From positions 1 through 32,405 of the forward strand of contig JACQRA010000016.1 in NCBI GenBank assembly GCA_016206725.1: a stretch of DNA of 32,405 nt, read 5' to 3'. A model generated the notes under the pieces. It was not told the origin of the DNA. It saw only the letters and a program-made list of their open reading frames with translations, and did no database searches. The stretch is from Candidatus Omnitrophota bacterium (lineage in GTDB: Bacteria; Omnitrophota; Gorgyraeia; Aquiviventales; Aquiviventaceae). Made by a program: the position numbers and the translations under genes. Of the stretch, positions 877 through 32,405 are shown piece by piece; positions within the stretch are counted from its first letter, which is position 1; each line of letters starts with the position of its first letter.

Positions 877-877
877 C

Positions 878-8170: not shown

Positions 8171-8174
8171 CGCG

Positions 8175-11876: not shown

Positions 11877-12841
11877 CCTAAGGACCGGGTGAGACGGAGC
11901 GCTTGCGCTCCCCGCGACAGCCACACACGCACCTGTTGGTATGACGCGTACGGCACGCACTGCATCAACCATCGATCGCGGAAGGCCTCGACATAGCGCC
12001 AGCGGTACGGGCGCAACCCCTCCATTGCCTCGCGCCGGCGGCCTCGTGCCCACGCCAATCTGGCCTCAAGCCTGGCGATTCCGAATTCAAAGCGCGCGGC
12101 CTCGCCCGCGAAAGTCCGGTCGAAATCCGGAATCAGATCGCGTTGCTTCTGGAGGACCATGCGCATCTCCACCGGCATCCGGTCGGGGCGCGTGTGCGTC
12201 AAGCTCTGTTGATGCATACGGACGCAGACCAGCGGTTCGTTGACGACATCCACCCACCATCGGTAGGCGATGCGCAGAAAAAAATCCATGTCCGAGAGCA
12301 TCTGGAATCGTGGATCGAACCCCACCGCCTCGCCTTCGAGGACTCGCCGATGCACGACCGCAGTCTGAATGCTGATGGCGAACTGCCGCAGGAGATACCG
12401 GTACGCCTCGCCGGAAGCGGGCTTCAGTTTCTGGAACTGCCGGAACAGGTGCCCGTTGCCCCACAGGTTCAGGCAATCGCTGTAGACAATCCCCAGCCGC
12501 GGGTCACGCTCGAAGCGCGGCACCTGCCGCGCCAGTTTGTGCGGCACCCACACGTCATCGTGGTCGATGAAGGCAATCAACGTCCCGCGAGACAGACGCA
12601 GCGCGAGGTCCCGCGCCGCCCCCTCTCCCATATTCCGCGGCGCTCGGTGATAGACGATCGGACGACCGGCTGCGATGTGCCGTTGGATCACGGCATCGGT
12701 CCCATCGGTTGAGGCATCGTCCACGATGACGAGCTCCCAATCCGTGTAGGTCTGAACGAACACGCTCTGCAGCGTCTCCTCCAGGAAGCGCGCCGAATTG
12801 TAACAGCAGAGGTTGATGCTCACGTGGGGCGTCATCGTCAT
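11858..12841 (-). CDS. GT2 (GT-A fold) glycosyltransferase
   Basis: Trimmed to ATG 12841 (ATGA overlap). Motifs: VSINLCCYNSARFLEETLQSVFVQTYTDWELVIVDDASTDGT, and a DxD-type FIDHDDV. Confidence 0.85.
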   Translation of the reverse strand: MTMTPHVSINLCCYNSARFLEETLQSVFVQTYTDWELVIVDDASTDGTDAVIQRHIAAGRPIVYHRAPRNMGEGAARDLALRLSRGTLIAFIDHDDVWVPHKLARQVPRFERDPRLGIVYSDCLNLWGNGHLFRQFQKLKPASGEAYRYLLRQFAISIQTAVVHRRVLEGEAVGFDPRFQMLSDMDFFLRIAYRWWVDVVNEPLVCVRMHQQSLTHTRPDRMPVEMRMVLQKQRDLIPDFDRTFAGEAARFEFGIARLEARLAWARGRRREAMEGLRPYRWRYVEAFRDRWLMQCVPYASYQQVRVWLSRGAQALRLTRSLGCPSIQ

Positions 12842-14742
12842 GTCGCAGCGTCTGCCGCCTCTTCCGGGCACGTCCTGATGAGCGACGTCCAGACCTCCTC
12901 ATCCACCGACCCGTACATCCGTTCGACCAGGGCCGCCGCGACAGGGCGCACGGGGGTGCCCGCCTTCAGCGTGGCCTCCACGGAAGCGCGCAGTGAAGCG
13001 CCGTTGCAGACCGGCACCGGCATGGCCTCCGGCTCCTGGCCTGCATCGATATCCACCAGATCGGCCCGATACTTCAGCACCGGCACCCCGCACAGGAACG
13101 CCTCCCACCAGCTCGATGTCGGCCCCACGTAGAGCAGCAGGTCGACATCGGGCAGCAACCGTGGCATGGAAAGCTCCGTCATCTTCATCCAGGACGGCAG
13201 CGCGAAGCCGTATGGCACAAGATGCGTCAGGGGCAGCGCGGGGTGGAACTTCAGTAGAAACCGGACCGAGCCGCCAGCCTTCGACTCAGACATGAGCGGC
13301 TGCCTGAACGCCTCCGAAAGGTCCGCCAGCAGACGGCTGGCATGCGGGCGGGAGATCGGAAAGGTTACCAGGACCGTACGGGGGGCTGTCGCGCGGTTCC
13401 GTCCGTAGCGAGCGACCCTCTGCTGAATCAGCTCCTCCAGCTTCGTGTGCAGATACTCATGCCGCAGCGCTCCACCGTTGACCAATCGCGCCAGCGGATA
13501 GCCCCCGATCTTGAGCTGTTCAAGGTTGAACACGCTGCTGGCGACAATCTGATCCGGCAGCGGGGTAATCTCTTCCGCCCCACGGCCCAGGGTATAAGGA
13601 AGCAGCAACGGGGGCACCCAACTGTGCTGATAGCCGACCAATTTGACGTGCGGCGCCCGCTCACGCCACGCGAGGCAAAGGAGCTTTTCCCATGGCTGGT
13701 CCTCGAACGGATAGATCACGCACCGGACCGAGGCGCCGACGCGCCCGGCGAGCCGGCGCATCGCGAAGTAGCCGATCCGGTAGTGCCAGAAATCAACCCG
13801 TCCCCACTCCCGCAGGGTTTCCCGACGCACCAGCCACCGGTAGTCCCATCCCTGACATTGAGCGAGCGCGCCGAGGTGATGAACCCGGAACCACGCGCAG
13901 AGCGTGCGGACAACATCCAGCCAACCAAGATATCTTGGTGTCACGAGACAGGGCACCGCGTGTTGCCGCAGTCGACGCAGCAAGGGCGGTGGAATCTCAG
14001 CGGGGGTCAGACGCGTGACCCGCTCACCGGCGGCCGTCAGCATGGCGTCGAGCCGTCCGGTCCACGCATCGCTCAGGCGTCCGGGCTGCTGAAAACATTC
14101 CGGGCGGATCCAGGTGTAGAGCAGCGTGGTGTCCCGCCGACGGCCCTCAAGCGACTCCCACGTCCGGGGAAACCACAGGCGCACAAGCCCGTACGATGTC
14201 ATCGCCGAACGGACGGTTGCCAGGACGGCGCGAGGGACTCGACTGAGCCACTTCAGCGCATCACGGGCGCAGGCGGCCAGTCCCACGCCTCGCCATGCCA
14301 CACGCAGGTCGCGCCCGAACTGCCAGCGCAGCGTCAGTGCCAACCAGGGGTCCTCCACCACGATGCATCGCACGGTGGCTGGCGGGGTGCTGCACAGCCA
14401 CGCATCGATCAGCCGGGTGTAGCAAATCAGCAGGAACACGTCTGTCTGCAATGGACTGCTCGTGGCGAAGGTCGACGCCCACCAGGAGACATGATCTGGC
14501 TGACGACGGCCGATGGCAACGAGCCAGTCGAGGTATGGCTGCTTCATCTCATGGGCCAACTGGGTGAGGGGCTCTTCGATCGGGATTTCGCGCGCGAGGC
14601 GGAGCGCGGCGGCTGTCCGCGCCCGCGTGGCCTCGTCCGTTCCACAATAGCACCACTCCAGGGGCGCATCCGCCGGGAGCGGCAGGCCGCCCGGAAGGCA
14701 CTCCGGCGCGACGATCCACCAACGGACGTCGGCGGGCGGCAT
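12838..14742 (-). CDS. Large (634 aa) uncharacterised cytoplasmic protein; possible GT-B-like / capsule-type transferase
   Basis: Long ORF with an ATG directly abutting the upstream TAG (TAGATG). It has no TM helices and no textbook catalytic motif. The C-terminal half alternates beta/alpha-like segments (VRCVIYPFED, KLVGYQHSW, TVLVTFPIS, VRFLLKFHP, VDLLLYVGPTSSWWEAFLCGVPVLKY). That pattern resembles the donor-binding half of CDP-glycerol-glycerophosphotransferase- or sialyltransferase-like enzymes. The functional call is weak. Confidence 0.7.
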   Translation of the reverse strand: MPPADVRWWIVAPECLPGGLPLPADAPLEWCYCGTDEATRARTAAALRLAREIPIEEPLTQLAHEMKQPYLDWLVAIGRRQPDHVSWWASTFATSSPLQTDVFLLICYTRLIDAWLCSTPPATVRCIVVEDPWLALTLRWQFGRDLRVAWRGVGLAACARDALKWLSRVPRAVLATVRSAMTSYGLVRLWFPRTWESLEGRRRDTTLLYTWIRPECFQQPGRLSDAWTGRLDAMLTAAGERVTRLTPAEIPPPLLRRLRQHAVPCLVTPRYLGWLDVVRTLCAWFRVHHLGALAQCQGWDYRWLVRRETLREWGRVDFWHYRIGYFAMRRLAGRVGASVRCVIYPFEDQPWEKLLCLAWRERAPHVKLVGYQHSWVPPLLLPYTLGRGAEEITPLPDQIVASSVFNLEQLKIGGYPLARLVNGGALRHEYLHTKLEELIQQRVARYGRNRATAPRTVLVTFPISRPHASRLLADLSEAFRQPLMSESKAGGSVRFLLKFHPALPLTHLVPYGFALPSWMKMTELSMPRLLPDVDLLLYVGPTSSWWEAFLCGVPVLKYRADLVDIDAGQEPEAMPVPVCNGASLRASVEATLKAGTPVRPVAAALVERMYGSVDEEVWTSLIRTCPEEAADAAT

Positions 14743-15399
14743 CTAGCTGGAATCCGCCCCGAATGCTTCGAGGGCGCGCGCCAAGTGAGCCAACGAGGCG
14801 ATCGTGGGACCTACGAAACCCTCCACGGCCGGCGTGCCGGGTGAGGGCCGCCAGATGAAGGGCACGGCGAACTGCCGGGCCGCCAGCCAGTCCGTCTGCG
14901 CATCGCCGACCATGATGACCTCCCACGGCTGCAGCCGTTGCCGCTCCAGCAGTCCCTGGAGCAGGGCGGCCTTATGGGGTGGTGCGCCCAGCACCTCGTC
15001 AAAGAAGTGGTCCATGCGCCGGCAGCGGATGACGTCCTTGAGCTCCGCCTCCGGGCTGCCGGAGACCACGAAGAACCGGTACCGCCCCCGGTGGGCTAGG
15101 AGGAATTCCTCGGCCCCCTCCACCCAAGGCGCCGCCACCAACCGTCTGACCACCAGCGCGGCGAAACGGTCGCACAGCTTCCTGTAAGTCGCCTCATCGA
15201 GCGGGCGTCGCAGGATGTCCCGGTAGATCGTCCGGAACTTCTCAAACCGCGACACGCCGCCATGCGCCTGGTGGTAGGCCACAATCTGCCGCGCGACGGC
15301 TGGTTCTTCGGCCGCGAAGAGCGCCGTAAAGGCCGAGGTCTTGATGGCCTCGGACTCGATCAGCACCCCGTCGAAATCAAACGCAATCGCCCGCACCAT
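14743..15399 (-). CDS. HAD-superfamily hydrolase (phosphatase-like, capped type)
   Basis: ATG 15399 gives MVRAIAFDFDGVLIES (DxDG motif I). An alternative GTG lies at 15405. Later motifs are FFVVSGSP and MVGDAQTD. Confidence 0.85.
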   Translation of the reverse strand: MVRAIAFDFDGVLIESEAIKTSAFTALFAAEEPAVARQIVAYHQAHGGVSRFEKFRTIYRDILRRPLDEATYRKLCDRFAALVVRRLVAAPWVEGAEEFLLAHRGRYRFFVVSGSPEAELKDVIRCRRMDHFFDEVLGAPPHKAALLQGLLERQRLQPWEVIMVGDAQTDWLAARQFAVPFIWRPSPGTPAVEGFVGPTIASLAHLARALEAFGADSS

Positions 15400-15407
15400 C
15401 CCCACAC

Positions 15408-17006
15408 CTAGCTGAACGTGACCTTCCCGTCGTTAAAATAGTTGGCAATGTACTGTTCCCGAAGATCGGCGAAGACGGCATTTCCTTCCTCGTCGTCGAT
15501 CTCAGCGCGCCGGATCGTTGGCCACAACGACTCCGGCAGCCTGGCGTAGAGCGAGAAACACCGCGCGATCCCCGTGATTTCTCGGGGCGAATACTGGGGC
15601 ATCTTGAGGATGGACGCGGCGGTGAGCGAGCACGTGACCGCGTTGTCGTCCAGCAGCCCCAAGGTGACCGCCAACGTTCGCAGCGGGGTCCCGTGATAGG
15701 GCATAAACGTGTAGCAGTTCATCGTGTCCACGATGAGTTCGCGATTGAGCCGGATCGTGTCGAAGGCCAGCTCCCTCGTCTCCGTTGGGAAGCCGGTGAT
15801 GTTGTTCACGGAGACGGGGATGTGACGGCCGATCAGGTTCGTCCGCTTGATCAGCTCTTCATTGGCGATCTGCCGGTCCACCACCTCCCGCCGGAACTGC
15901 TCGTTGCCGTGCTCGATGCCCAGCGACACTCGATGGCAGCCGACGCTCTTGAGCATGTCAACCGCCTCCTCGGTAATCGTCTCAGGCCGCGTCTGCATCC
16001 AGAAGGGGAGCCGGACGTTGCGGTACATCTCAATGAAGGCCTTGAACTCCTCGTTCGACCAGGCGAGGAAGGTGTCAGCCGGAAAGTAGACATACTCGGC
16101 CTTCCAGCGTCTGACGAGTTCGACCAGCTCCTCCTGCACTTTGGTAATGGATTTCTTCCGAAAGAACTTGCCGACGCGGTTTTCCTTGTGGAGCCGGTTC
16201 TGCGACGGCGAGTTGCAATAGGTACACGTGAAGGGGCAGCCCCGGTGCGTCTCGATGGGGATCATCCGGTACACCGTGCCCGCCATCGGGCGGTAGATCC
16301 GGTTCTCCTCAAAAATCTCGAAGTCCAAGATCGGCAGGGTGTCGAGCTCAACGAGGGGGCGCTGGGGGTTGACCTTCGCCTTCCCGTCCGGCCCTTTCAC
16401 CCAGAGGTTGTTGACATCGGAGTAATCCAGCCCCATGGCCATTCGCTCGCACAGTTCGACAAGGGCTCCCTCGCCCTCCCCTACGCAGACCATGTCAATC
16501 GCCGACTCCTCAATGGCGATGTGCGGGGCGAAGGTGGCAAACACCCCACCCAGGATGGTCGGGATCTTTCGGTCCTTGATCTGATTGAGGAGGTAGAGAC
16601 CCTGGAAGTAGGTATCTTCCACCGCGGAGACGGCGATCAGGTCCGGCTGGAACGTGTCCACGAGTTGGAGGAAATCATCGACCATGTCGGTCTCTTTGGG
16701 GGTAATCCCGCGCTCCACGAGGTTGAAGGGCCGCACCTGCAAGGTGAGCTCTTTGCGCTTGTCTGAGCTGATCTCAAACCTGCCGATCCCCTGCCCGCCC
16801 AGCTTCGCCATGGCCATCCCGACGTGGTCCCACGGGTAGTAGGTCGTGTCGAATAGGGCGACCTCAATCCCTTTCTGCTTCAGGAGCGCAGAGAAGATCG
16901 CGATGGAAGGCGGCATCATGTTCATCATGTAGAGATTGGGATAGACGAAGAGTACCTTGAAATGCGGCTGCAGCGCCCCACGGAGGATGGACACCGGCTC
17001 GTTCAC
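15408..17006 (-). CDS. B12-binding-domain radical SAM enzyme (class B), copy 1
   Basis: GTG start 17006 sits in a GTGA overlap with the upstream stop. The N-terminal Rossmann-like cobalamin-binding region carries KVLFVYPN and IPTILGGVFATF. The radical SAM cluster motif is ETHRGCPFTCTYC (CX3CX2C). It is a clear paralogue of 27979..29913. Confidence 0.9.
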   Translation of the reverse strand: MNEPVSILRGALQPHFKVLFVYPNLYMMNMMPPSIAIFSALLKQKGIEVALFDTTYYPWDHVGMAMAKLGGQGIGRFEISSDKRKELTLQVRPFNLVERGITPKETDMVDDFLQLVDTFQPDLIAVSAVEDTYFQGLYLLNQIKDRKIPTILGGVFATFAPHIAIEESAIDMVCVGEGEGALVELCERMAMGLDYSDVNNLWVKGPDGKAKVNPQRPLVELDTLPILDFEIFEENRIYRPMAGTVYRMIPIETHRGCPFTCTYCNSPSQNRLHKENRVGKFFRKKSITKVQEELVELVRRWKAEYVYFPADTFLAWSNEEFKAFIEMYRNVRLPFWMQTRPETITEEAVDMLKSVGCHRVSLGIEHGNEQFRREVVDRQIANEELIKRTNLIGRHIPVSVNNITGFPTETRELAFDTIRLNRELIVDTMNCYTFMPYHGTPLRTLAVTLGLLDDNAVTCSLTAASILKMPQYSPREITGIARCFSLYARLPESLWPTIRRAEIDDEEGNAVFADLREQYIANYFNDGKVTFS

Positions 17007-17905
17007 TTAAGCTCCTCGGCGAGTGCCGCGCTGATTCGCTGACGCTCGTGCATCTCGTTGAGACACGCGAGCAACCCCTGTCCCAGATCAAGGTAATGCT
17101 TCCCCACGAGTTTCTTCGCGATCTTCGGCTGGAAGGTATAGGGACTTCGACGATAGTGGACGAGCGCATCCGGTCCCTGAAACGTGATGGTCAGCTTCTT
17201 GTTGAGCATCTCCTGGATCATCTCCAGTAGGGCTTTCACCGTCATGGGTTGGTGGCCGGTGATGAGCACGTACTGGTTTTCAAATTCCGTGGCGAGTGCC
17301 TCGACACTGTGTCGTGCCGCATCCTCCACATGGATGTACTCTCGAATCTCTTCGCCATCCCCCAGCGAGTCGATCTTGCCCTCAAGGAGCGCCTGGGTCA
17401 GATACCGGTGGACGGCGTTGGTCGCATCCGCCCGCGGACCGTAGAGACTGCCGTACCGAAGGATGGTGTAGGGCAGCCCGTGCACCTGTTGAAACGCCTC
17501 GAGGTACAGCTCGCAGGCCTGCTTGCTACACCGGTAGAAGCCGCCCGCGAGGCTATGCACATAGACGGTGCTGGCGTACAGGACGCGCCGTACGCCGGTC
17601 CGGCGACACGCCTCCAAAAGCATCGTCGTACCCAGGATGTTCTGCCGGACGGTCTCGACGGGACGTTGGTTGGCCTCGTTGATATCCGCGATCCCGGCAA
17701 AGTGGTAGACGATCTCGCAGTCCGTCACCGCGCGCCGAACCGCGGCCTCATCGAGGAGATCCCCAACCATCATCTCCTGGCCGGTCTGCAGGTACGGCGA
17801 AGGGCACCGGTCGTAGATTCTCACGGCATGGCCCCGCTGCGTCAACACGTCGGCCACATGGCTGCCCAGGAATCCTGATCCTCCAAAGACCACCGCGCGC
17901 ATCAT
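17003..17905 (-). CDS. NAD(P)-dependent extended-SDR epimerase/dehydratase/reductase
   Basis: Track ORF trimmed to ATG 17905 (or ATG 17902). GGAGG at 17909..17913 overlaps the upstream TAG. Motifs: MMRAVVFGGSGFLGSHV (GxxGxxG) and YRCSK (YxxxK). The TDE motif of 4,6-dehydratases is absent. Confidence 0.9.
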   Translation of the reverse strand: MMRAVVFGGSGFLGSHVADVLTQRGHAVRIYDRCPSPYLQTGQEMMVGDLLDEAAVRRAVTDCEIVYHFAGIADINEANQRPVETVRQNILGTTMLLEACRRTGVRRVLYASTVYVHSLAGGFYRCSKQACELYLEAFQQVHGLPYTILRYGSLYGPRADATNAVHRYLTQALLEGKIDSLGDGEEIREYIHVEDAARHSVEALATEFENQYVLITGHQPMTVKALLEMIQEMLNKKLTITFQGPDALVHYRRSPYTFQPKIAKKLVGKHYLDLGQGLLACLNEMHERQRISAALAEELK

Positions 17906-17908
17906 CTG

Positions 17909-17913
17909 CCTCC
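17909..17913 (-). promoter_or_regulatory. Shine-Dalgarno (GGAGG) for the extended-SDR gene, overlapping the preceding stop codon
   Basis: Reverse strand reads TAGGAGGCAGATGATG. GGAGG is 3 nt from the first ATG and 6 nt from the second. Confidence 0.45.
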
Positions 17914-18461
17914 TACGGCTGTTCCTGACGATCGCCTCTTTGTCTGAGCACGGTCGCGGGCACCCCAGCCGCCACCGTGTAGGGTGGGATGTCATGTGTG
18001 ACGACGCTATGGGCGCCGATGACGCAACCACGTCCGATCCGGACGCTGCGCGTGACCACCACATGACTCCCCAGCCAGCAGTCGTCTTCGATCACAATCG
18101 CACCGCCCCGATGGCCTTGGTCCTTGATCGGGATCGCCGGGTCGGAAAACACGTGATCGGCCGCCCGAAGGACGCAATAGGGGCCAATGAGAACATTGTT
18201 CCCAATCTCGATTGCTCCCCCATCGCTGGGGTCGAGGACGACGCCGATATTCATGGACACCCCCTCGCCAATCTTCACCCCCTCCGGGCAGTAGATCTTC
18301 AGGCCAGACATCGAATGGAAGCGGCCCGCCTGCTGAAGGAAGCGCCTGTAAAAGGCGTACCGCGCGGCGCCACAGTGATCCGGCAGCATCGCCACAAGCT
18401 GTTGACCGGCATAGAAGCACTCCACGCCGATCCGGCGCTTGAGAGACACCCAAAAGGACAT
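17913..18461 (-). CDS. Left-handed beta-helix (hexapeptide-repeat) acetyltransferase, LacA/WbbJ-like sugar O-acetyltransferase type
   Basis: ATG 18461 lies 1 nt after the upstream TAA. Hexapeptide repeats: IGEGVSMNIGVVL, IEIGNNVLIGPYCVL, IVIEDDCWLGSHVVVTRSVRIGRGCVIGAHSVV, ending AAGVPATVL. Confidence 0.85.
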   Translation of the reverse strand: MSFWVSLKRRIGVECFYAGQQLVAMLPDHCGAARYAFYRRFLQQAGRFHSMSGLKIYCPEGVKIGEGVSMNIGVVLDPSDGGAIEIGNNVLIGPYCVLRAADHVFSDPAIPIKDQGHRGGAIVIEDDCWLGSHVVVTRSVRIGRGCVIGAHSVVTHDIPPYTVAAGVPATVLRQRGDRQEQP

Positions 18462-18462
18462 C

Positions 18463-19209
18463 TTAGTCCCCACCAGCCACGGTCAGGATCTCCCCGGTGA
18501 TGTAATCGCCGGCCCTCGAGGCGAGAAACAGGGCCATGCGAGCGACCTCCACAGGCCGACCGGCTCGTTTGAGCGGAATGAGTTGGATGCGCTTCGCGGC
18601 CTGCGTTCTTCCGATCTTCCGATGAAAGGCCGTCTCGATAAATCCGGCCCGAATGGCATTGACGAGGATGCCATGCGAAGCCCCACACCTCGCCATCCCG
18701 ACCGTGACCGCCTCCATGGCGGCCTTCGCGGCGCCATAATGCAGCGTCTCGGGCGACACGCCGTATTTTGCTGCAATCGAACTGATGTTGATGATCTTCC
18801 CACCCCGCCGCCGCATGAGCCGGAACGCCTCGCGTGCGAGCAGAAACGGCGCGCGCGCGTTCAGGGCCATGGTGCGATCCCAGGACGCTTCCGCGAGTGT
18901 GGCAAACTGGCGGGGACCGAAGACCGCTCCGGCGTTATTCACCAGCACATCAATGCCGCGAAACCGTTTGACGAACGTCTCCATCACCCTGACACACGCT
19001 TGCGGATCCAGGAGATCGCCGTGGCACGCCACCGCCTCCCCGCCACGTCGCGTCACCTCACGACACAGCGCGCGGGCCTGTCGTTCGTTCCGACAGTAGT
19101 GAATGCCGAGGCGCGCACCCTCCGCGGCAAAGAGCCGCGCCATCGCGGTGCCGATCCCCCCGCTGGCGCCGGTGATGAGGACCCGCTTCCCCTTCAGGCC
19201 GTTGAACAT
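18463..19209 (-). CDS. Classical short-chain dehydrogenase/reductase (SDR)
   Basis: Track ORF trimmed to ATG 19209 (MFNGLKGKRVLITGASGGIGTAMA), giving a 16-nt overlap with the upstream gene end. Motifs: NNAG, and the catalytic YGAAK preceded by ISSIAA. Confidence 0.9.
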   Translation of the reverse strand: MFNGLKGKRVLITGASGGIGTAMARLFAAEGARLGIHYCRNERQARALCREVTRRGGEAVACHGDLLDPQACVRVMETFVKRFRGIDVLVNNAGAVFGPRQFATLAEASWDRTMALNARAPFLLAREAFRLMRRRGGKIINISSIAAKYGVSPETLHYGAAKAAMEAVTVGMARCGASHGILVNAIRAGFIETAFHRKIGRTQAAKRIQLIPLKRAGRPVEVARMALFLASRAGDYITGEILTVAGGD

Positions 19210-19979
19210 GTCGTGCGTCTCCTCGGCGCGGTGGGGTACGGGGTCTGCGTGTCGGAGAAGCCATGCGCCCGCAGCCAGTATTCCACCATGGGAACCTGCC
19301 ACTTGAAATCGACGTCGCAGCCGCCCCACTGCTTCAAGGGAGCGATGCGACGCCCCATCCAGCGTTGGGGCAAGAGTCCGTGCGGCAACTGCTCAAGGCA
19401 CTGCGGACGGACGATGGAGACCCCCATGTCGGCGAAATAGACGTCGCCCTGCGAGTCACGGTCGCAGTTGAGGGTAGCCGGATCCCCAAAGGTTTCCAGC
19501 GGAACAAATGGCTGCAGACAGCCGTCATCACCCAGCTTGCGCGCCCGCAGGGGACTCCACATGTTGTACGGCGAGACGGTCACGACCGAATCCAGCCTCG
19601 GATCACGGCGCAGGATCTCGACCCCCTCATCGATTGTGTCCGCCAAGACGGTCGGGGCGTTACAGAAGAGCAGCACCATCAGCTCGACAGGTTTCTTGAG
19701 CGTGTCGCGAATGTAGCGGAACCCATGAGCGAAGGCGTCTTCACCCAGGGCCGTTTTGGTCGCCAGTTCCGGCGGACGTTCGATGATCGTCGTGCCGTGT
19801 TCTCGGGCGAGCTGTTTGATACGCTCCGAATCGGTTGACACATAGATTTCGTCCACGGCTTGCGCATGGAGGGCCGCCAGCAGCGGGTAGGCCATGAGCG
19901 GCCGTCCGAGTACCAGGTGGGTGTTTTTCCCCGGAAACCCCACGCTCCCTTCACGGCCCAACAGGAGTGCGGCGATCAT
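19194..19979 (-). CDS. Divergent CTP_transf_3-family cytidylyltransferase (CMP-sugar synthetase-like), copy 2
   Basis: Trimmed to ATG 19979 (2 nt after the upstream TAA). MIAALLLGREGSVGFPGKN corresponds to the ARGGSKG-x-KN P-loop of NeuA/KdsB-type enzymes but is diverged. It is followed by IYVSTDSERI. Confidence 0.75.
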   Translation of the reverse strand: MIAALLLGREGSVGFPGKNTHLVLGRPLMAYPLLAALHAQAVDEIYVSTDSERIKQLAREHGTTIIERPPELATKTALGEDAFAHGFRYIRDTLKKPVELMVLLFCNAPTVLADTIDEGVEILRRDPRLDSVVTVSPYNMWSPLRARKLGDDGCLQPFVPLETFGDPATLNCDRDSQGDVYFADMGVSIVRPQCLEQLPHGLLPQRWMGRRIAPLKQWGGCDVDFKWQVPMVEYWLRAHGFSDTQTPYPTAPRRRTTCSTA

Positions 19980-19981
19980 CG

Positions 19982-21139
19982 TTAGACCACCGTACAGCGG
20001 TTGCACGGTGAGCAGCGTGGCCGCTGTGACGTCAGATGGCGTTCACGGAGCTCTTCGTACCGTTCTGAACGCCACAAGGCGCTCAGAGACTGCTCGTTGG
20101 CACTACCGATGGTGAGCGTTGACTTGTAATCCACGTCGCACGGGTTCACGGTTCCGTCCCACCAGACAAACATCCGCCGCCATAAATCGGAGCAGGCGGT
20201 CTCGACGCCGGTGGCCGGGTGGTCGTAGACGTTTTCCCACGGGTTGTACGTCACGAAGGCCACCTGATCCACGAACTCCTCCCAGACCGAGGCCATCCGC
20301 TCCAGATCCGGCGTGCCGGGAACACTCACACCAGAGACGCGCGTGATCACGCGCGAGCGGGGGTAATGGTCCGCCCGAATTCGGTGGAACCGCTCAATGT
20401 TGGCCCGCACCTCGGCAAACCGGCCGCCGACGCGCAGGCGCTCGTACAATGCCGCGTCGGCCGCCTCCACAGAAAAGACCACCGTGTTCACCTCAGCTTC
20501 CAGAATCGCATGGCAGGCGGCCTCATCCAGCCGCGAGGCGTTGGTGTTGAGCTTCAGCGCCAAGAACTTGCCCTTGGCGTAGGCCAGCATCGCGTCAATG
20601 TCCGGACACAGCAGCGGCTCGCCCCGCGAGGCCAGCGTCACCGCCTCACAGCAGCCCCCCGCCTCATCAATCACGCGCTTGAAGAGGTCGAGGGACATCA
20701 CACCCATGTAGCCGTTCGTCCGCTTCGTCAAACCGGCATCCGTCTGGTAGCAGAACACGCATCGGTAGTTGCAGACCGAGGCCGGTTCCACCTGGAGGCA
20801 CGGCGGAAACGCGTCCAAGATGTTCCTGCTCGGATACGTCTCATACCGGTAGCGGTACCACAGGTACCGCGGCAACGCCTCGTCAGGAAGTCGGCTGATC
20901 TCTTCCACCACGTACGTCTGCAGGACAAACGGCACGCCGTCCTGAGGCGGCGCCTCGCCGAACAGCTCTGCGCAGGCTTGACGCACCACGGCCCGACGGC
21001 CCGTGTCAGGCTCGAGCGCCTCGAGTCGGTCTCGCACCCGCGCGATTCGCCTGAAGACATCCTCCGCCACCGGGCTGCGGTGATGCATCGCGGCGAAGCT
21101 ATCGTGTTTCTGGTAGGTGGCGACTCCCTTGATGGCCAT
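19982..21139 (-). CDS. Radical SAM enzyme with partial SPASM/twitch C-terminal domain and ~110-aa N-terminal extension
   Basis: ATG 21139. The radical SAM cluster is VEPASVCNYRCVFC (CX3CX2C). The C-terminal CSDLWRRMFVWWDGTVNPC fits CX12GX4C, followed by RCSPCNRC (CX2CX2C). Confidence 0.85.
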   Translation of the reverse strand: MAIKGVATYQKHDSFAAMHHRSPVAEDVFRRIARVRDRLEALEPDTGRRAVVRQACAELFGEAPPQDGVPFVLQTYVVEEISRLPDEALPRYLWYRYRYETYPSRNILDAFPPCLQVEPASVCNYRCVFCYQTDAGLTKRTNGYMGVMSLDLFKRVIDEAGGCCEAVTLASRGEPLLCPDIDAMLAYAKGKFLALKLNTNASRLDEAACHAILEAEVNTVVFSVEAADAALYERLRVGGRFAEVRANIERFHRIRADHYPRSRVITRVSGVSVPGTPDLERMASVWEEFVDQVAFVTYNPWENVYDHPATGVETACSDLWRRMFVWWDGTVNPCDVDYKSTLTIGSANEQSLSALWRSERYEELRERHLTSQRPRCSPCNRCTVV

Positions 21140-21143
21140 GTCC

Positions 21144-22916
21144 TCACACGTGAGAAGCGCTCGGCGGTGGCAGCTCGCTCAGGGTGTCCGACCAACGAGA
21201 CGCCCAGTGACGGTCCACCAGCGCGTAACGCTCCACGAATTGATGACGCGCCTGGCGGACGTCTGTGCGGCGCCACCACGCCTGTGGCTGGTCGCACACG
21301 GTTGCGACGTGGCCGGCCGCAGCCTCCGGCTCATCCCACAAGATCCCCGCCTCACGCAGCGCGTGAAGGTATGGCGCGGCCTCCGCCCGGACCTCCCACC
21401 GCCGTGGATCCCAGAAGAGCACGGTCGGGATATTGGCGGCAAGCGTTTCGAGGAAGACCGTCGCCGAATGATCCACGATGACCAGCCGGGCCTTCGCGAA
21501 CTGTCGATGAATCGGCACCGCCGGCTGCCACCGGACCTCCGGAAACCGTTCACGGATGCCTTCCTCTACGGCATGCCCATAGTCATGGGGATACGGACGA
21601 AAGAGCACCCGGCGTCGCACCCGTTCAGGCAGGGCGTCCAGGAACCGACGCTGCCAACGGAAGTATTCCTCCACTTGACCGCCCACCGGCGTGGACTGAA
21701 ACTGGTAGAGGTACCGGGGATGCGCGGTGGTAACGAACAAGAACGCACCGTCCCGCGCCGCGGGCGCGTGGCGCAGCGTGCGAGTGAGCGCCGAGAGATT
21801 CGGAGACGGCAGATTCCGGCAGATGGGGTGATGATCCCCGGCCCAGCCCCATACTAGAAAGGCGTCCGAGAGGCGAGCCTCGTGTCGTTCGATCGGCGAA
21901 AAGCGATAGAGCCCGTATCCGCCGCCGTGCTGCACCGAAATGAGCCGACCGCCGCCGGCTGACACCTCGGCCGCGAGGAAGCGAAACGGGCTGTTGCTAT
22001 ACCACGTGTTGGTCGCCACGAGGACGGCAGGAACTGCTGGATAGCGACGCCGCACTTCCTCCCTGGCTTGTCGGTAGCCTTCGAGGAAGAGCGTGGGAAG
22101 GTGAAACGGCAGCATCGGCATGACGAGCCGCTCAAAGGGATCTCCACTGGGCAGGCGGGAGAGCCCATTCCGAGCCTCGTCAAACCTCGCGTCGGGGAGC
22201 GCGAATCCCCAATCCCTCGACACCTCCAACGGCATGACGCGGCCGGCCGTCTTCCAGGCCAATGACCAGCTCATCATCCGCGATCGACAGACATCCTGCA
22301 GTCCCACCTTCCACCGACGACGTAGCGCGCGCCGGACCATGTCTTCGCCGCGCCGTATGCCGACACGCCGAGGGCTCTGACACGCGCCATTGACCGCGTC
22401 CTCCGGCGCGGCTCTCCCTCGTGCCGGAAACGCATGCCCCATTCCCGCGAGGAGCTGAGAGAAGAGCTGGAGGTTGGCGAAATCGTCATGGAGCCAGCCA
22501 CGGGCTTGCTCAGGCTCCTGCGGCACACGAAACGACCGGGGATCGAGCACGAGGGTCCGCAGGTTGGGAGCCTGCTGGAAGGCCTCCGTGAGATGGACAT
22601 AACGGTCGTAGGCGGCATGAAGGAAGGACAGCAACCATGACCCAAGGAGCACGCGCCACGACTGCAGCGGATACGCAACGCCATGAACCGCGTTCAGGTA
22701 GTTGGCCAGACGCTCGAGCATCCGTTCACCACAGCCATCCACATAGTCGGCGGCTTCGTAGAAGCGCTCTCGGTCATTCCAGGGCGAGGGCATCACGCGG
22801 AAGCGCAGGTGCGCCCAGTACCTCCGTTGATCCTGGCGAAGGCACCAAGAACCCAGGCACAGGACTTCCTCGCGGGGATCCCAGAAGTCGGTCAATGCCG
22901 TCGTCGCGAGGAACAT
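21144..22916 (-). CDS. Large (590 aa) putative transferase resembling the 'LIC12162 family' found in nonulosonic-acid loci
   Basis: Trimmed to ATG 22916 (1 nt after the upstream TAA). The N-terminus MFLATTALTDFWDPREEVLCLGSWC and the central ISVQHGGGYGL...AFLVWGW match my memory of that family. The C-terminal ARLVIVDHSATVFLETLAANIPTVLFW looks like a GT-B donor-domain helix. The family assignment is from recall and is not searched. Confidence 0.7.
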   Translation of the reverse strand: MFLATTALTDFWDPREEVLCLGSWCLRQDQRRYWAHLRFRVMPSPWNDRERFYEAADYVDGCGERMLERLANYLNAVHGVAYPLQSWRVLLGSWLLSFLHAAYDRYVHLTEAFQQAPNLRTLVLDPRSFRVPQEPEQARGWLHDDFANLQLFSQLLAGMGHAFPARGRAAPEDAVNGACQSPRRVGIRRGEDMVRRALRRRWKVGLQDVCRSRMMSWSLAWKTAGRVMPLEVSRDWGFALPDARFDEARNGLSRLPSGDPFERLVMPMLPFHLPTLFLEGYRQAREEVRRRYPAVPAVLVATNTWYSNSPFRFLAAEVSAGGGRLISVQHGGGYGLYRFSPIERHEARLSDAFLVWGWAGDHHPICRNLPSPNLSALTRTLRHAPAARDGAFLFVTTAHPRYLYQFQSTPVGGQVEEYFRWQRRFLDALPERVRRRVLFRPYPHDYGHAVEEGIRERFPEVRWQPAVPIHRQFAKARLVIVDHSATVFLETLAANIPTVLFWDPRRWEVRAEAAPYLHALREAGILWDEPEAAAGHVATVCDQPQAWWRRTDVRQARHQFVERYALVDRHWASRWSDTLSELPPPSASHV

Positions 22917-22917
22917 C

Positions 22918-24492
22918 TTACCGACGCGCTCTCCCGGCGGCCAATCGTGGCACGACACCCGACCATCCCCCCCGCCACACCATCCATCCCATCGCGCCCC
23001 AGACGGCAACCGCCAAGACGGTTCGTCCCATAAAGACCGTCAGGACCGGCGACGTCCCCTCATAGGAGAAGGGCCCCAGGTGATACACGCCAAAAAGCCC
23101 GCCGGTCACCAGAACGAGTCCTCCCAGCCATCCGTAGAGCGAGAGGCCGCTTCGCCATCCCGTCACGACATAGCGATGGATCAGCAGCAGCAGCGCCACC
23201 GAGAACATCGTCTGCGCGGCAACGCTACACAGGACGATACCGTGCAACCCCCAGCCGGCACGGATCGCCCACGTCGTCAACCCGATGTGGAGCGCAAAAC
23301 CGCTTCCCCACATCGCGGTGACCAGCCGATGCCGGTTGAGCGTCGCCGAGTTCAAGAGATAGACGGGGACGTTCTGAAGCGTCCCCGCGGCCAACAGAAA
23401 CGCGAAGAGTTCAAAGAGGCCGATGGCCGGCTGATAGCGGGGGAGCAGCCAGTGCACGAGGGCGCCACACCACGCCTGGCTCAGGCTGGTCATCGCGCAC
23501 GTCACCAACAAGAGCCAGCAGAGGAGCCGGCGGATCTGAGGACCAAGCACCTGAGGATTCGCGACCCGTTCGAGCTCAGCCCAGAGGCGCGGATAGATGA
23601 CGATGATGAGATTGATCACCATGAGCACGCCTAAGGACACGCACTGCTTCACGAAGGTGAAATAGCCCAGCTCGGTCAGGGGGAGGGCCACCGCGGCCAT
23701 CGCCTGATCCACGGATCGGAAGCCCCAACACAGAAACGTCTGCAGCGACAGGGGCAGTCCGACGGCCAGTAACCGTCGGCATTCCCGGGGATCCCAACGC
23801 CATCGTAGCGCAAGCGTCGGCGCCCATAACCGGAAGCCGAGGAGCGTCGTCAGAGCGATCACCGTCGTTTTCAACAGGGGGCTGTAGATCTTGAGCCACG
23901 CGATCGTGCTCAGCACAAATATCACAGAGCCAAGGCTGCTCAGCACGGTCGTCTTCGCCATCACCGGAAAGCGTTCACGAATAAAGTGAAGGCCGGTGAC
24001 GAAGTCGGCCGCTTGAGAACCGATGAATCCCACCGCGCCAATGAGCAAACCGTGGCGCAGCCAGGGGTGGGATTGCAGGCAGGCGGCTCCCACCATCACG
24101 CCCGCCACCAGCAGCACCCAGATGCCTTCTCCGGTCACGCCGACATGTTGAAGGGCCGTCGCCTCTCGTGATTTTCCCTGCCCCAAGAGGGCAGTGGCCT
24201 CCCGTTGCGCGGCGCTATAGATACCGGTCTTGGCCATCGAGGCATACAGTTGCCAGACGGCGACGAACCCCACGACCCCCAGCCCTTCCGGTCCCAGCAC
24301 ATGAGCTACCAGAAGCCCAAGGGGAAATTGGATCAACGCATTCAGGATCGTGGCGGCAGAGAGCGCGGTCGATCGACGCAGGAAGGCCCGAAACGACAGC
24401 GCGCTTTCCTTCGCCGGGCCCGTCCACGACTCCACGAGCGCCGGAGGCGGCGCGTGGGAGATGTCCGGGAGGATCGCGGCTTCACGGGTCAT
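22918..24492 (-). CDS. MOP-superfamily polysaccharide/oligosaccharide flippase (Wzx-like)
   Basis: Trimmed to ATG 24492 (ATGA overlap). The protein is 524 aa with ~12-14 hydrophobic helices throughout (ATILNALIQFPLGLLVAHVLGPEGLGVVGF...). This is typical of Polysacc_synt/Wzx proteins. Confidence 0.78.
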   Translation of the reverse strand: MTREAAILPDISHAPPPALVESWTGPAKESALSFRAFLRRSTALSAATILNALIQFPLGLLVAHVLGPEGLGVVGFVAVWQLYASMAKTGIYSAAQREATALLGQGKSREATALQHVGVTGEGIWVLLVAGVMVGAACLQSHPWLRHGLLIGAVGFIGSQAADFVTGLHFIRERFPVMAKTTVLSSLGSVIFVLSTIAWLKIYSPLLKTTVIALTTLLGFRLWAPTLALRWRWDPRECRRLLAVGLPLSLQTFLCWGFRSVDQAMAAVALPLTELGYFTFVKQCVSLGVLMVINLIIVIYPRLWAELERVANPQVLGPQIRRLLCWLLLVTCAMTSLSQAWCGALVHWLLPRYQPAIGLFELFAFLLAAGTLQNVPVYLLNSATLNRHRLVTAMWGSGFALHIGLTTWAIRAGWGLHGIVLCSVAAQTMFSVALLLLIHRYVVTGWRSGLSLYGWLGGLVLVTGGLFGVYHLGPFSYEGTSPVLTVFMGRTVLAVAVWGAMGWMVWRGGWSGVVPRLAAGRARR

Positions 24493-26362: not shown

Positions 26363-27357
26363 CGGACACGTGCCTCCTCATGGTGTGGCATGGTCTCGAC
26401 ACTCGCTCGGCGCGCCTCCACAGGCTGTGCGATGAGCACCCACAACGCGGCATGCTCGGCGGAAGGGGCGAGGCTCTTGGCGAACCACGGCCGCACCCGC
26501 CTAGCCAAGAGCGGCACGATGAGCCGCTTGAGCAACCCCTTCAGTCGGAGAGATTGCAACGCGCGACCCAACAGCACCAGCCCGTGCAGGATTGGGCGCG
26601 TGCTCATGTCCCATCGGCGAACCGCTCCGACGTGTAGAACCGGTATCGCCCCGTGCAACCGGAAACCCGCCGCGGTGAGCCGTTCTTCCCACTGCGCGCG
26701 ATGGCCGGTGAGTCGCGTCAGCGTGCGAAAGCGGCCGTTGTCAATCCACTCGAAGAACCGGGCACGCCAGTGGCGACCGTTGCGCCGGTATCGTTGGGCG
26801 CGATGATGCGACTGGAGTTGCCCGCCGAAGGTATCGTTCGGCACCACCAGCACGAGTCGACCGTCATCCCGCACAACGCGATGCATCTCGCGCAACCCGG
26901 CCTGCCAATCCGGCAGCCAGTAGAGGATATTGCAGAAGACCGTCGCAAACGAACGATGAGCGAACGGCAGCGCCTGCCCGTCACCCTGCACCAGGGAGCG
27001 ATACGTCGCCGTCCGTCGGGCCTTGTCGAGTAAGCCCGCCTTGTGGTCCAGCCCGACCGTCACGAGCCGTCGGGGGGGTGTGGCCTCGAGGCGCGTCATC
27101 GACGCGGCCGTGTCGTAGAGATCGCCGCGCAGGCGCAGGCGGGTGTCGGTATAGCGGTCATACGAGAGCCGCACCCGCCCTCCCGACGCGATCAGCATGA
27201 AGAGCCCGTCGCCGCAGCCCATATCCAGCGAGGGCTCGCCCATCAGCATCGACGCCAGGACGGACGCCACCGACGCATCCCACACCGCGTCGAAGGGTTT
27301 GAGCCAGTTCGCTTCGAGGAAGCGACGCAGGCAGCGTTCAGCGTCTGCTGACGGCAT
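26359..27357 (-). CDS. Class I SAM-dependent methyltransferase
   Basis: Track ORF trimmed to ATG 27357, giving a 20-nt overlap with the upstream gene end; the start is uncertain. Motif I is SLDMGCGDGLF. Later motifs: FATVFCNILYWLPD and VVRDDGRLVLVVPND. Confidence 0.8.
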   Translation of the reverse strand: MPSADAERCLRRFLEANWLKPFDAVWDASVASVLASMLMGEPSLDMGCGDGLFMLIASGGRVRLSYDRYTDTRLRLRGDLYDTAASMTRLEATPPRRLVTVGLDHKAGLLDKARRTATYRSLVQGDGQALPFAHRSFATVFCNILYWLPDWQAGLREMHRVVRDDGRLVLVVPNDTFGGQLQSHHRAQRYRRNGRHWRARFFEWIDNGRFRTLTRLTGHRAQWEERLTAAGFRLHGAIPVLHVGAVRRWDMSTRPILHGLVLLGRALQSLRLKGLLKRLIVPLLARRVRPWFAKSLAPSAEHAALWVLIAQPVEARRASVETMPHHEEARVR

Positions 27358-27982
27358 GGGTCGCCTGGCGTTTGCGCAGCACCTGTTCGGCCAGCCACAG
27401 ATCGAACGGCTCGTCAATGTCGATATGCTGCTCCCGGTCCAGGAGCACCCGCTCGATCTTCGTGCCGTACCGGTCCCCGGAGCGGATCAGATCCGCCTTC
27501 ATCACGTAGACGTTGCCGTCGTCATAGAAGAAGCCATCGATGTCCTGACGCCGATGCTCCTGGCGATCCTTGGCGTAGGCCGTGTATTTGCAGATGAAGC
27601 CGGTCGCCAACGAGTCCGCTCCCGTGTCGAGAAACCGCTGGATGCAACGGTCAATCAGATCGACATCCCGCACCGGGCACGGCGCCTGGAGGATCACGAC
27701 GACGTCGGCGGGAATGCGCTCCAGCGCGTGTTGCAAGACGCCGAGCATCGGCGCGTCGTCGGTCGCCAACGCCGCCGGGCGGTCGAGCACCTCCGCGCCG
27801 CACTGCCGCGCCACGGCCGCAACCTCCGCGTCTTCGGTTGACACCACGTAGCGGTCGAGGCGTGCCGCGGCCTTCGCCGCCTCAATCGTCCAGGCGAGGA
27901 GCGGTTTGCCACAGAGGGGCCGAATGTTCTTGCGCGCAAGCCCCTTGCTCCCCCCACGCGCCGGTGTGACGCCAAGGATCAT
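27338..27982 (-). CDS. neuA: Acylneuraminate (nonulosonate) cytidylyltransferase, NeuA/CTP_transf_3 family, copy 1
   Basis: Trimmed to ATG 27982 (ATGA overlap with the radical SAM stop). MILGVTPARGGSKGLARKNIRPLCGKPLLAWTI is the canonical CMP-NulO synthetase P-loop. The symbol is used in the family sense only; the actual nonulosonate is unknown. Confidence 0.88.
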   Translation of the reverse strand: MILGVTPARGGSKGLARKNIRPLCGKPLLAWTIEAAKAAARLDRYVVSTEDAEVAAVARQCGAEVLDRPAALATDDAPMLGVLQHALERIPADVVVILQAPCPVRDVDLIDRCIQRFLDTGADSLATGFICKYTAYAKDRQEHRRQDIDGFFYDDGNVYVMKADLIRSGDRYGTKIERVLLDREQHIDIDEPFDLWLAEQVLRKRQATHAVSRR

Positions 27983-32151: not shown

Positions 32152-32405
32152 TAGTAGGCCAAGGCCTTGAAGAGCAGCCGCTCATCAAGGGGAATAGTGG
32201 AGAGTGTTTCAAGAATTCGCTCGCTGGCATGGCCGTCTCCGTACGGATTCTGCAACCCCGACAAGCCGGCGCGAAAGGCGGACGAAAGTGCGCGCTCGAT
32301 GGCGCTCAGGATGGCGCCTTTCTCGTGGCCCACGTTCAAGACATTGCCAGCCTGCATCCGACCCGCCTGCCGACGCCCGATGTTCACCACCGGCAGCTCA
32401 AAGGA
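32151..32405 (-). CDS. neuC: UDP-N-acetylglucosamine 2-epimerase (hydrolysing), NeuC/LegG/PseG-neighbour type; C-terminal 84 aa only, 5' end outside the window
   Basis: The frame is open to the window edge: SFELPVVNIGRRQAGRMQAGNVLNVGHEKGAILSAIERAL...LQNPYGDGHASERILETL. The NIGxRQxGR and NPYGDGxAS motifs are characteristic of the C-terminus of NeuC-type Epimerase_2 enzymes. Confidence 0.8.
   Translation of the reverse strand, partial: SFELPVVNIGRRQAGRMQAGNVLNVGHEKGAILSAIERALSSAFRAGLSGLQNPYGDGHASERILETLSTIPLDERLLFKALAY

Follow-up and report, generated by a model that had tools for sequence, protein, structure and literature searches.

The stretch analysed here, referred to hereafter as the window, is 32,405 nucleotides (nt) of DNA from a Candidatus Omnitrophota bacterium (assembly GCA_016206725.1, contig JACQRA010000016.1, positions 1 to 32,405). 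All genes of this 32.4-kb window lie on the minus strand and make up one continuous polysaccharide locus. The gene in question, at 15408-17006, encodes a predicted radical S-adenosylmethionine (SAM) enzyme with a cobalamin (B12)-binding domain, a class abbreviated here as B12-rSAM. It is called copy 1, and a second B12-rSAM gene, copy 2, lies 11 kb from it within the same co-directional locus. A first-pass annotation had placed such a gene here between an extended short-chain dehydrogenase/reductase (SDR) gene and a HAD hydrolase gene; the open reading frame (ORF) and the Pfam matches (PF02310/PF04055 for the enzyme, PF01370 for the SDR and PF00702/PF13419 for the hydrolase) bear this out. Judged from its sequence, copy 1 is a genuine, intact B12-binding-type radical SAM enzyme that is selectively maintained. 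The features of the two copies are as follows.

15408..17006, minus strand: copy 1, predicted class-I cobalamin-dependent radical SAM enzyme, 532 amino acids (aa) (PF02310 and PF04055, AlphaFold2 (AF2) model, Foldseek, dN/dS)
16437..16958, minus strand: N-terminal Rossmann (B12-binding) domain of copy 1, residues ~17-190 (AF2 strands, PF02310, invariant residues, TokK/OxsB alignments)
16215..16238, minus strand: [4Fe-4S] motif C257-P-F-T-C261-T-Y-C264 of copy 1 (translation, invariant columns)
27979..29913, minus strand: copy 2, B12-binding radical SAM enzyme, 644 aa, with a C-terminal extension and in a separate orthogroup (Pfam, orthologues, dN/dS, clustering)

Copy 1 begins with a GTG codon at 17006-17004, in the context GAGGAGcttaaGTGAac, and this codon and the TGA stop of the extended SDR gene upstream (17005-17003) overlap as GTGA, just as the first-pass annotation had read the junction with the epimerase/reductase gene. 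A Shine-Dalgarno-like GAGGAG lies 5 nt 5' of the GTG. An alternative in-frame GTG at 16994, four codons on, is the start used in the public protein P0001 (528 aa). The same junction reads ATGA in the closest relative, a locus from an uncultured Planctomycetia metagenome-assembled genome (MAG) labelled L004, so that the 4-nt coupling of the SDR and B12-rSAM genes is conserved. At the other end, copy 1 stops with TAG at 15410-15408 and the HAD gene starts with GTG at 15405, 2 nt beyond the TAG. Matches to promoter and terminator consensus sequences around copy 1 were not above those in shuffled sequence, which fits an operon-internal gene with coupled translation. An Rfam scan of the window gave no family at its gathering score, cobalamin riboswitch included. 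The GC content of copy 1 is low (0.597), yet its GC at third codon positions (GC3) is 0.85, as in the neighbouring genes. With a GC of 0.567, copy 2 is the lowest in the locus, and its GC3 is 0.69, compared to 0.70-0.85 in the other genes. Recent horizontal acquisition was considered on base composition, which was decisive for neither copy (neighbour-like GC3 in copy 1, mildly low GC3 in copy 2); the low GC of copy 2 may reflect a more recent arrival of that gene.

Both proteins score above the Pfam gathering scores for the two domains that define the class: 49.4 (copy 1) and 64.2 bits (copy 2) for the B12-binding domain PF02310 (gathering score 32.1), and 78.4 and 74.4 bits for Radical_SAM, PF04055 (gathering score 29.5). 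The PF02310 match in copy 1 covers residues 107-185. The AF2 model of copy 1 (predicted local distance difference test, pLDDT, 92.5; predicted template-modelling score, pTM, 0.91) consists of a five-stranded Rossmann domain (strands 17-22, 48-53, 123-127, 150-153 and 172-174), a radical SAM TIM barrel and a C-terminal helical domain, and a conserved, partly disordered insert interrupts the B12 domain at residues ~54-120. The Rossmann domain contains the GGVFATF and GEGE motifs and the loop S127-A-V-E130-D131. The cluster cysteines C257, C261 and C264 are invariant in an alignment of 100 homologues, and the N265-S266-P267 that follows the cluster motif does not vary within the copy-1 family. 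The class I architecture has a five-stranded Rossmann B12 domain placed N-terminal to the radical SAM domain (PMC12931638), and the model assigns copy 1 to it. Foldseek ranked MgmA/QCMT (9ccb), TsrM, OxsB, AprD4 and TokK as the nearest structures (query template-modelling (TM) score 0.57-0.63, 13-18% identity, E down to 8e-22). Because these neighbours range over radical methylases, a non-radical methylase, a ring-contracting enzyme and a dehydratase free of cobalamin, the reaction cannot be read from the fold.

The two copies align along the whole catalytic core, with 34% identity and 51% positives over 508 positions (BLASTP, E 5e-90). The motif pairs on which the first-pass annotation had based this alignment are all present: IPTILGGVFATF, DMVCVGEGEG, NLWVK, CPFTCTYC and PYHGTPLRT in copy 1, and IPTIVGGVHATV, DMVCLGEGEE, NLWIK, CPFTCSYC and PYKGTPIRT in copy 2. 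The copies are not each other's closest relatives, however. Copy 1 is 65-83% identical to its orthologues, the best named one being that of the Planctomycetia MAG (L004, 80%), and copy 2 is 61-70% identical to its own; orthologues of each occur in other phyla. When 215 B12-rSAMs from the searches and loci were clustered by identity (average linkage; unrooted and without a characterised outgroup), 173 sequences fell in the copy-1 family and 17-25 in that of copy 2; the two families were separate at a distance cut-off of 0.68 and merged at 0.72, that is, at about 28-32% identity. The separate orthogroups and the low identity at which they merge therefore indicate that copies 1 and 2 are ancient paralogues and not recent duplicates within the operon. 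The earlier description of two diverged paralogues in one operon thus stands as regards their divergence and their place in different sub-modules, but not if it is taken to mean duplication in situ. The copy-1 orthologous family is very large and without any characterised member: in a library of 50%-identity representatives copy 1 matches 1,690 clusters at E<=1e-30, rising to 14,481 when the limit is relaxed to E<=1e-10.

Both copies are intact and under purifying selection. For copy 1, the ratio of nonsynonymous to synonymous substitution (dN/dS, by the NG86 method) was 0.11 against the L004 orthologue and 0.07 against that of L006; copy 2 compared with its L010 orthologue likewise gave 0.07. 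With dS saturated these values are rough, but their sign is clear. Each copy keeps all invariant columns of the 100-sequence alignment, among them the three cluster Cys, G153-G154 and E177-G178. Only four positions are conserved within each family and differ between the families (copy 1/copy 2): F156/H129, S266/N240, D311/E283 and I403/M377. F156/H129 belongs to the B12-domain motif GGV(F/H)AT, and S266/N240 comes two residues past the third cluster Cys. Divergence thus clusters around the cofactors, in keeping with different substrates or a different tuning. In one relative, L095, the copy-2 orthologue (9364-11281) is broken in two, a 132-aa piece with the B12 domain and a 496-aa radical SAM piece, directly downstream of an insertion sequence (IS) element with HTH_Tnp_1 and rve transposase genes, and it looks disrupted in that relative.

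The genes on either side of the two copies fall into an order that can be followed from the upstream end of the locus. It opens with a CBS protein, a polysaccharide deacetylase, the formyltransferase-like gene, copy 2 and the PseF-like cytidylyltransferase B, and continues with a methyltransferase, a PhyH dioxygenase, a second methyltransferase, a Wzx-like flippase and the LIC12162-family transferase. There follow a radical SAM gene with a SPASM domain (rSAM-SPASM), the NeuA-like cytidylyltransferase A, the classical SDR, the hexapeptide acyltransferase and the extended SDR, then copy 1, the HAD hydrolase and a 634-aa TIGR04326-like protein. A GT2 glycosyltransferase, a DegT/PseC-like aminotransferase, a GT4 glycosyltransferase, a Wzy-like protein and an AsnB-type amidotransferase come next, and the locus ends with a carbamoyltransferase, a deacetylase-methyltransferase fusion and a GT1-DUF218 protein. 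The locus holds four conventional SAM methyltransferase domains. The neighbours that bear on the two copies are listed here.

29967..30983, minus strand: formyltransferase-like protein, directly upstream of copy 2 (PF00551; NCBIfam formyltransferase models all below cut-off)
27338..27997, minus strand: PseF-like cytidylyltransferase B, overlapping the end of copy 2 by 19 nt (PF02348)
21144..23009, minus strand: LIC12162-family transferase, 621 aa (TIGR04331, 451 bits against a cut-off of 225, full length)
19982..21139, minus strand: rSAM-SPASM enzyme, the third radical SAM enzyme of the locus and the first gene of the copy-1 block (PF04055, PF13186)
19194..20006, minus strand: cytidylyltransferase A of the copy-1 block (CTP_transf_3, NeuA/PseF-like; PF02348)
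18463..19329, minus strand: classical SDR (adh_short), real start probably M41 at ~19209 (PF13561, PF00106)
17913..18473, minus strand: hexapeptide-repeat acyltransferase (PF00132; WbbJ, WcaF and NeuD-type NCBIfam matches, all below cut-off)
17003..17905, minus strand: extended SDR (NAD-dependent epimerase/dehydratase), coupled to copy 1 (PF01370, E 5e-43, residues 58-259)
14743..15405, minus strand: HAD-superfamily hydrolase, probable phosphatase, directly downstream of copy 1 (PF00702/PF13419; same position in L006)
12838..14742, minus strand: 634-aa GT-B-fold protein, putative nucleotide-sugar-dependent transferase, TIGR04326-like (LIC13510 type) (NCBIfam, AF2, Foldseek)

Cytidylyltransferase A has CMP-N-acetylneuraminic acid (CMP-NeuAc) synthetases as its nearest entries in the PDB (6ifd, E 3e-13, and 9ftb). 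Both cytidylyltransferases exceed the Pfam gathering score for PF02348. On the PseF equivalog model (cut-off 205.7) cytidylyltransferase A scores 67.6 bits, and cytidylyltransferase B, which aligns over the full length of the model, scores 110.2. The start of the cytidylyltransferase A gene is overlapped by the end of the rSAM-SPASM gene, whose best NCBIfam matches are tungsten-cofactor/metalloenzyme maturases and spiro-SPASM proteins, all far under their cut-offs. The mechanically called ORF of the extended SDR extends to 18064; its real start is probably M54 or M55 (~17905/17902), since the NCBIfam models align from residue 55 and the orthologues, which lie directly upstream of copy-1 orthologues, are ~290 aa long. 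N-terminal over-extension of called ORFs probably also explains several apparently long gene overlaps in the locus. The adh_short SDR has an orthologue of 59% identity at the same position in L004.

Two proteins of ~620 aa each accompany one of the B12-rSAM blocks, the L13510-like 634-aa protein with copy 1 and the LIC12162-family protein with copy 2. Neither has a Pfam domain or a relative in the PDB by sequence, and hhalign found no detectable similarity between them (probability 0.5%). The 634-aa protein scores 62.6 bits on TIGR04326 (NCBIfam cut-off 250). Its AF2 model (pLDDT 87.3) has a GT-B fold and is nearest NeuC/UDP-GlcNAc 2-epimerases, TagF and HepE in Foldseek (TM, target, ~0.57). 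An 829-aa protein, P0401, fuses a HAD hydrolase domain to an L13510-like protein, a Rosetta-stone fusion that suggests a functional link between the HAD gene at 14743-15405 and the 634-aa protein.

Gene context was compared across relatives by a metagenome scan with the family alignment, from which the best 80 of 489 confirmed matches were taken. After loci with focal proteins at least 95% identical had been collapsed, 37 non-redundant loci of at least 12 kb remained. Neighbours were counted within ±10 kb on stop-to-stop ORFs, a crude way of calling them, by phmmer/BLAST against the window proteins. The most constant neighbour was a NeuA-like cytidylyltransferase (27/37). The rSAM-SPASM gene was present in 22/37 loci, usually adjoining cytidylyltransferase A, as was the extended SDR (22/37); the adh_short SDR was found in 18, the L13510-like protein in 14, a 2-hydroxyacid dehydrogenase in 13 and the HAD hydrolase in nine of the 37. 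An AP_endonuc_2 TIM-barrel protein and a Methyltransf_24 protein are further recurrent members of the block.

The order of the copy-1 block is itself conserved. In the Planctomycetia MAG (L004) it runs rSAM-SPASM, CTP_transf_3, adh_short, extended SDR, B12-rSAM and a 600-aa protein; L006 has the same order plus the HAD hydrolase, and variants occur in L007, L008 and L009, so named among the related loci, which include Planctomycetia, Acidimicrobiia and other contigs with block synteny. The L13510-like protein adjoins the copy-1 family gene in L004, L006, L007, L008, L014, L020, L022 and L031. In L010, L093 and L095 the gene after the copy-2 orthologue encodes a PseF-like cytidylyltransferase, and genes of the NeuB, NeuC-like or PIG-L kind stand before the orthologue; a LIC12162-family gene accompanies copy-2 orthologues in L010, L012, L093, L094 and L095. 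NeuB or HMGL-like genes together with a ferredoxin-like protein were found in the equivalent blocks of L007, L009, L010, L020 and L093.

Orthologues of both copies were found together in none of the sampled related loci; in L012 (Acidimicrobiia), a truncated ORF after the extended SDR is not a copy-1 orthologue. L004 keeps the copy-1 block, and its second B12-rSAM (524 aa, beside a formyltransferase) is only 23% identical to copy 2, which makes the locus a mosaic of exchangeable blocks. The first-pass annotation had considered two such enzymes rare for a surface-glycan locus. This was not borne out: at least two B12-rSAM ORFs lie within ±10 kb in 16/37 of the non-redundant loci and at least three in 7/37. 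Several B12-rSAMs per locus are unusual among characterised glycan loci and common in this uncharacterised class. In L045 and L052, both marine metagenome contigs, three copy-1-family genes, 41-49% identical to copy 1, stand in tandem, and in L011 three different B12-rSAMs surround two NeuB genes.

The reading that we favour, with a probability of roughly 0.45, is that the copy-1 block is a pathway for a modified acidic CMP-sugar in which copy 1 performs a radical tailoring step, probably C-methylation, and copy 2 works in parallel on a second sugar. The block would build a modified acidic, ulosonic-acid-like sugar, its own cytidylyltransferase would activate this sugar with cytidine monophosphate (CMP), and the GT-B protein would install the activated sugar on a polymer. 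Copy 1 would contribute one step at an unactivated carbon, most probably methyl transfer, in which a 5'-deoxyadenosyl radical would abstract a hydrogen atom and methylcobalamin would then give the methyl group, as in GenK and Fom3. Copy 2 would have an analogous role in its own block, with the PseF-like cytidylyltransferase and the LIC12162-family transferase, and its orthologues lie beside NeuB genes.

We infer a CMP-sugar from the similarity of cytidylyltransferase A to CMP-NeuAc synthetases, the full-length PseF alignment of cytidylyltransferase B and the GT-B-fold partner. C-methylation is favoured because methylases dominate the characterised B12-rSAMs: C-methyltransferases are by far their largest group (PMC12931638), and GenK, MoeK5 and Fom3 are examples with carbohydrate or CMP-linked substrates (PMC9204698). 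The two parallel, conserved blocks argue that the two enzymes act on two different sugars and not iteratively on one. The proposal of two distinct radical steps made in the first-pass annotation is thus favoured by gene context, each copy having its own cytidylyltransferase and its own putative transferase of ~620 aa. A published sequence-similarity network groups HpnJ, an enzyme with an amino-sugar substrate, with Fom3 and MoeK5, and all three act on sugars or cytidylyl compounds (PMC9204698); this grouping is a lead, not a test.

Several results weigh against the favoured reading. Its main weakness is the absence of an ulosonic-acid synthase: the NeuB-type synthase domain PF03102 was found in 0/26 window genes, no KdsA or HMGL-type ulosonic-acid synthase was found among them either, and NeuB or an HMGL-like synthase lay within ±10 kb in only 9/37 related loci. 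The synthase may be encoded elsewhere in the genome, or the activated compound may be of another kind. No curated NCBIfam family reaches its cut-off for either copy, and the best models are those of non-methylases, HpnJ (TIGR03471) for copy 1 (93.7 bits over residues 103-505, cut-off 577.6) and BchE (TIGR02026, cut-off 481.35) for copy 2 (100.5 bits; 80.4 for copy 1). The methylase models likewise stay below their cut-offs for copy 1, with 65.6 bits for MgmA/QCMT (TIGR04014, cut-off 360; 37.4 for copy 2) and 74.3 and 49.5 bits for the P-methyltransferases PhpK and Sden_1168 (TIGR04479 and NF038361, cut-offs 600 and 575); the AprD4 model (NF033070, cut-off 500) gives 36.7 bits. AprD4, a structural neighbour with a similar N-terminal domain, lacks cobalamin, and cobalamin binding by copy 1 is itself a prediction. 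Radical methylases have a hydrophobic residue beneath the corrin (W76 in TokK) and another between the corrin and the cluster (W215 in TokK) (PMC12931638). In a weak phmmer alignment of ~16% identity, in which the loop may be misregistered, W76 falls opposite D131 of copy 1 and W215 opposite S266. MgmA, a radical methylase, has Val two residues past the third Cys, not an aromatic residue.

These results lend themselves to the alternative that copy 1 is a B12-rSAM that does not methylate and instead catalyses a rearrangement, ring contraction, oxidation or dehydration, with cobalamin as an electron sink or at least not as a methyl carrier. The top curated models for both copies are of this kind, OxsB and AprD4 are among the closest folds, E130/D131 align with a lower-axial position at which TsrM and OxsB carry a polar residue and radical methylases a hydrophobic one, and a small residue, Ser266, takes the stacking position of TokK W215. 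Moreover, the four conventional methyltransferase domains of the locus are already at hand for ordinary methylations, and both HpnJ (PMC9204698) and AprD4 act on amino sugars. The model scores are, however, generic at the superfamily level and 6-fold below the cut-offs, the loop alignment carries the uncertainty noted above, the closest structure (MgmA/QCMT) is a radical methylase that has Val past the third Cys, and most characterised B12-rSAMs are methylases. We regard a non-methylating copy 1 as somewhat unlikely, though it is the strongest competitor to the favoured reading. The two paralogues could also act on one sugar, successively or iteratively, to build an ethyl or isopropyl group or to methylate two positions. 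Both genes do stand in one co-directional locus, iterative methylation by B12-rSAMs is established for TokK, ThnK and CysS (PMC9204698), and tandem arrays of three copy-1-family genes exist (L045, L052). But the 11 kb between the copies separates two blocks, each with its own cytidylyltransferase and ~620-aa partner, each orthogroup occurs without the other in every sampled related locus, and L004 pairs the copy-1 block with a non-orthologous second B12-rSAM; action on a common sugar is accordingly improbable.

Two further explanations fare worse. Copy 1 might have nothing to do with a glycan and be merely embedded here, acting on a lipid, a cofactor or a peptide, given that the substrates of B12-rSAMs are very diverse (PMC12931638) and that there are weak matches to the lipid and peptide enzymes (the latter of RiPPs, peptides made by the ribosome and modified after translation) rSAM_ladder_B12 and rSAM_ocin_1. 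Its coupling to a sugar SDR and its position between sugar-nucleotide enzymes are conserved across phyla, and the block contains no precursor-peptide or lipid genes, which makes this very improbable. Decay of one copy, which the first-pass annotation had named as an outcome that would undercut its proposal, or redundancy between the two, we consider close to negligible. The split copy-2 orthologue beside an IS element in L095 and the GC of copy 2, the lowest of the locus, can be cited in its favour. In the window itself both ORFs are full length with the CxxxCxxC motif intact and all shared invariant residues kept, dN/dS is 0.07-0.11, the GC3 of copy 1 is like that of its neighbours, and the separate orthogroups, with identity as low as 34%, exclude a recent duplication.

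The closest solved structure to copy 1 by sequence is MgmA/QCMT (PDB 9CCB; E 1e-12), the glutamine C-methyltransferase of methyl-coenzyme M reductase, and by fold the match has E 8e-22 with TM 0.59 on the query and 0.74 on the target. The two proteins share the class-I architecture, the GEGE motif and the 'ETHRGCP..C.(Y/F)C' motif. They differ in that they are 18% identical, MgmA is archaeal with a protein substrate, and copy 1 is ~80 residues longer, with the B12-domain insert (~54-120) and the C-terminal helical domain. Fom3, MoeK5 and GenK serve as a working analogy, as the carbon they methylate is an unactivated sp3 one, in a sugar or in a cytidylylated intermediate. The substrate of Fom3, cytidylyl-2-hydroxyethylphosphonate, is made by the cytidylyltransferase of its pathway (PMC9204698, PMC8158854), and a cytidylyltransferase is likewise the most constant neighbour of copy 1. 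These three enzymes belong to antibiotic pathways, not to surface glycans, and they are likened to copy 1 by description, not by sequence. A phosphonate pathway of the Fom3/PhpK kind, suggested by the combination of cytidylyltransferase and PhyH, was ruled out, as the window has no phosphoenolpyruvate (PEP) mutase or phosphonopyruvate decarboxylase.

HpnJ resembles copy 1 in being its top curated model and in acting on an amino sugar, the glucosamine ring of bacteriohopanetetrol, which it contracts; the score is ~6-fold under the cut-off, however, the window has no hopanoid genes and HpnJ is proposed not to be a methylase. OxsB and AprD4 (query TM 0.61-0.63, 13-15% identity) have sugar or nucleoside substrates and non-methylating outcomes, ring contraction and diol dehydration, respectively; OxsB has extra domains compared to copy 1 (744 aa) and AprD4 lacks cobalamin. 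At the level of the locus, the window resembles those for nonulosonic acids (Pse/Leg/Neu) in its NeuA/PseF-like cytidylyltransferases, DegT/PseC-like aminotransferase, acyltransferase and formyltransferase genes, Wzx/Wzy pair and LIC12162-family transferase, and in the NeuB/NeuC-like genes that flank copy-2 orthologues. It differs in lacking a NeuB synthase. We know of no described nonulosonic-acid pathway that includes a B12-rSAM, and a full-text literature search, with subscription journals mostly outside it, turned up no paper that connects cobalamin radical SAM enzymes with O-antigen loci or with nonulosonic, pseudaminic or legionaminic acids; its one hit, on viruses and methanogens, had no bearing on the subject. 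LIC12162 came up there once, in passing.

To our knowledge, the reactions of cobalamin-dependent radical SAM enzymes, the methylation or rearrangement of unactivated carbons among them, have no counterpart elsewhere, and most B12-rSAM subfamilies are without a known function. The conserved neighbours of the copy-1 family point to surface-sugar tailoring on CMP-activated acidic sugars, a setting treated by no characterised pathway that we know of and nowhere in the literature searched, and the block supplies concrete candidate substrates and partner enzymes. Confirmation of this role would give B12-rSAMs a new substrate class and would lead one to expect undescribed sialic-acid-like sugars, branched or rearranged, at the cell surface of Planctomycetes and of many uncultured microbes. 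As it stands, the result is a well-supported refinement of annotation, which places a known enzyme class in an unstudied, widespread sugar-tailoring block, and it is not a surprise. A bolder extension, which we hold to be doubtful, is that the copy-1 and copy-2 orthogroups are the first B12-rSAMs that act on ulosonic sugars, CMP-activated or before activation, with C-methylated or ring-rearranged, undescribed products, that the block is a widespread unrecognised pathway in environmental bacteria and archaea and that loci with two or three B12-rSAMs make several differently branched sugars.

Some features lie outside the two blocks. The operon seems to begin near 32151, because stop codons close the CBS reading frame upstream of the gene (~250 nt), and 32152-32405 is likely the promoter region of the locus. 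The window ends, 1-878 and 32152-32405, hold no recognisable genes, and the ORFs at 67-588 (plus strand), 185-706 (minus strand) and 725-1243 (plus strand) have no Pfam match. The AsnB-type amidotransferase (6281-8281, minus strand), which is followed by the carbamoyltransferase and the deacetylase-methyltransferase fusion, reaches 618 of the 817 bits set as cut-off for TIGR03108, the XrtA/PEP-CTERM amidotransferase model, a score that hints at a link to PEP-CTERM-type exopolysaccharide systems. The PhyH-family Fe(II)/2-oxoglutarate dioxygenase (25295-26362, minus strand) lies between the copy-2 block and the flippase and is flanked by two class-I methyltransferases; the arrangement of PhyH, methyltransferase and flippase is also seen in L007 and L094.

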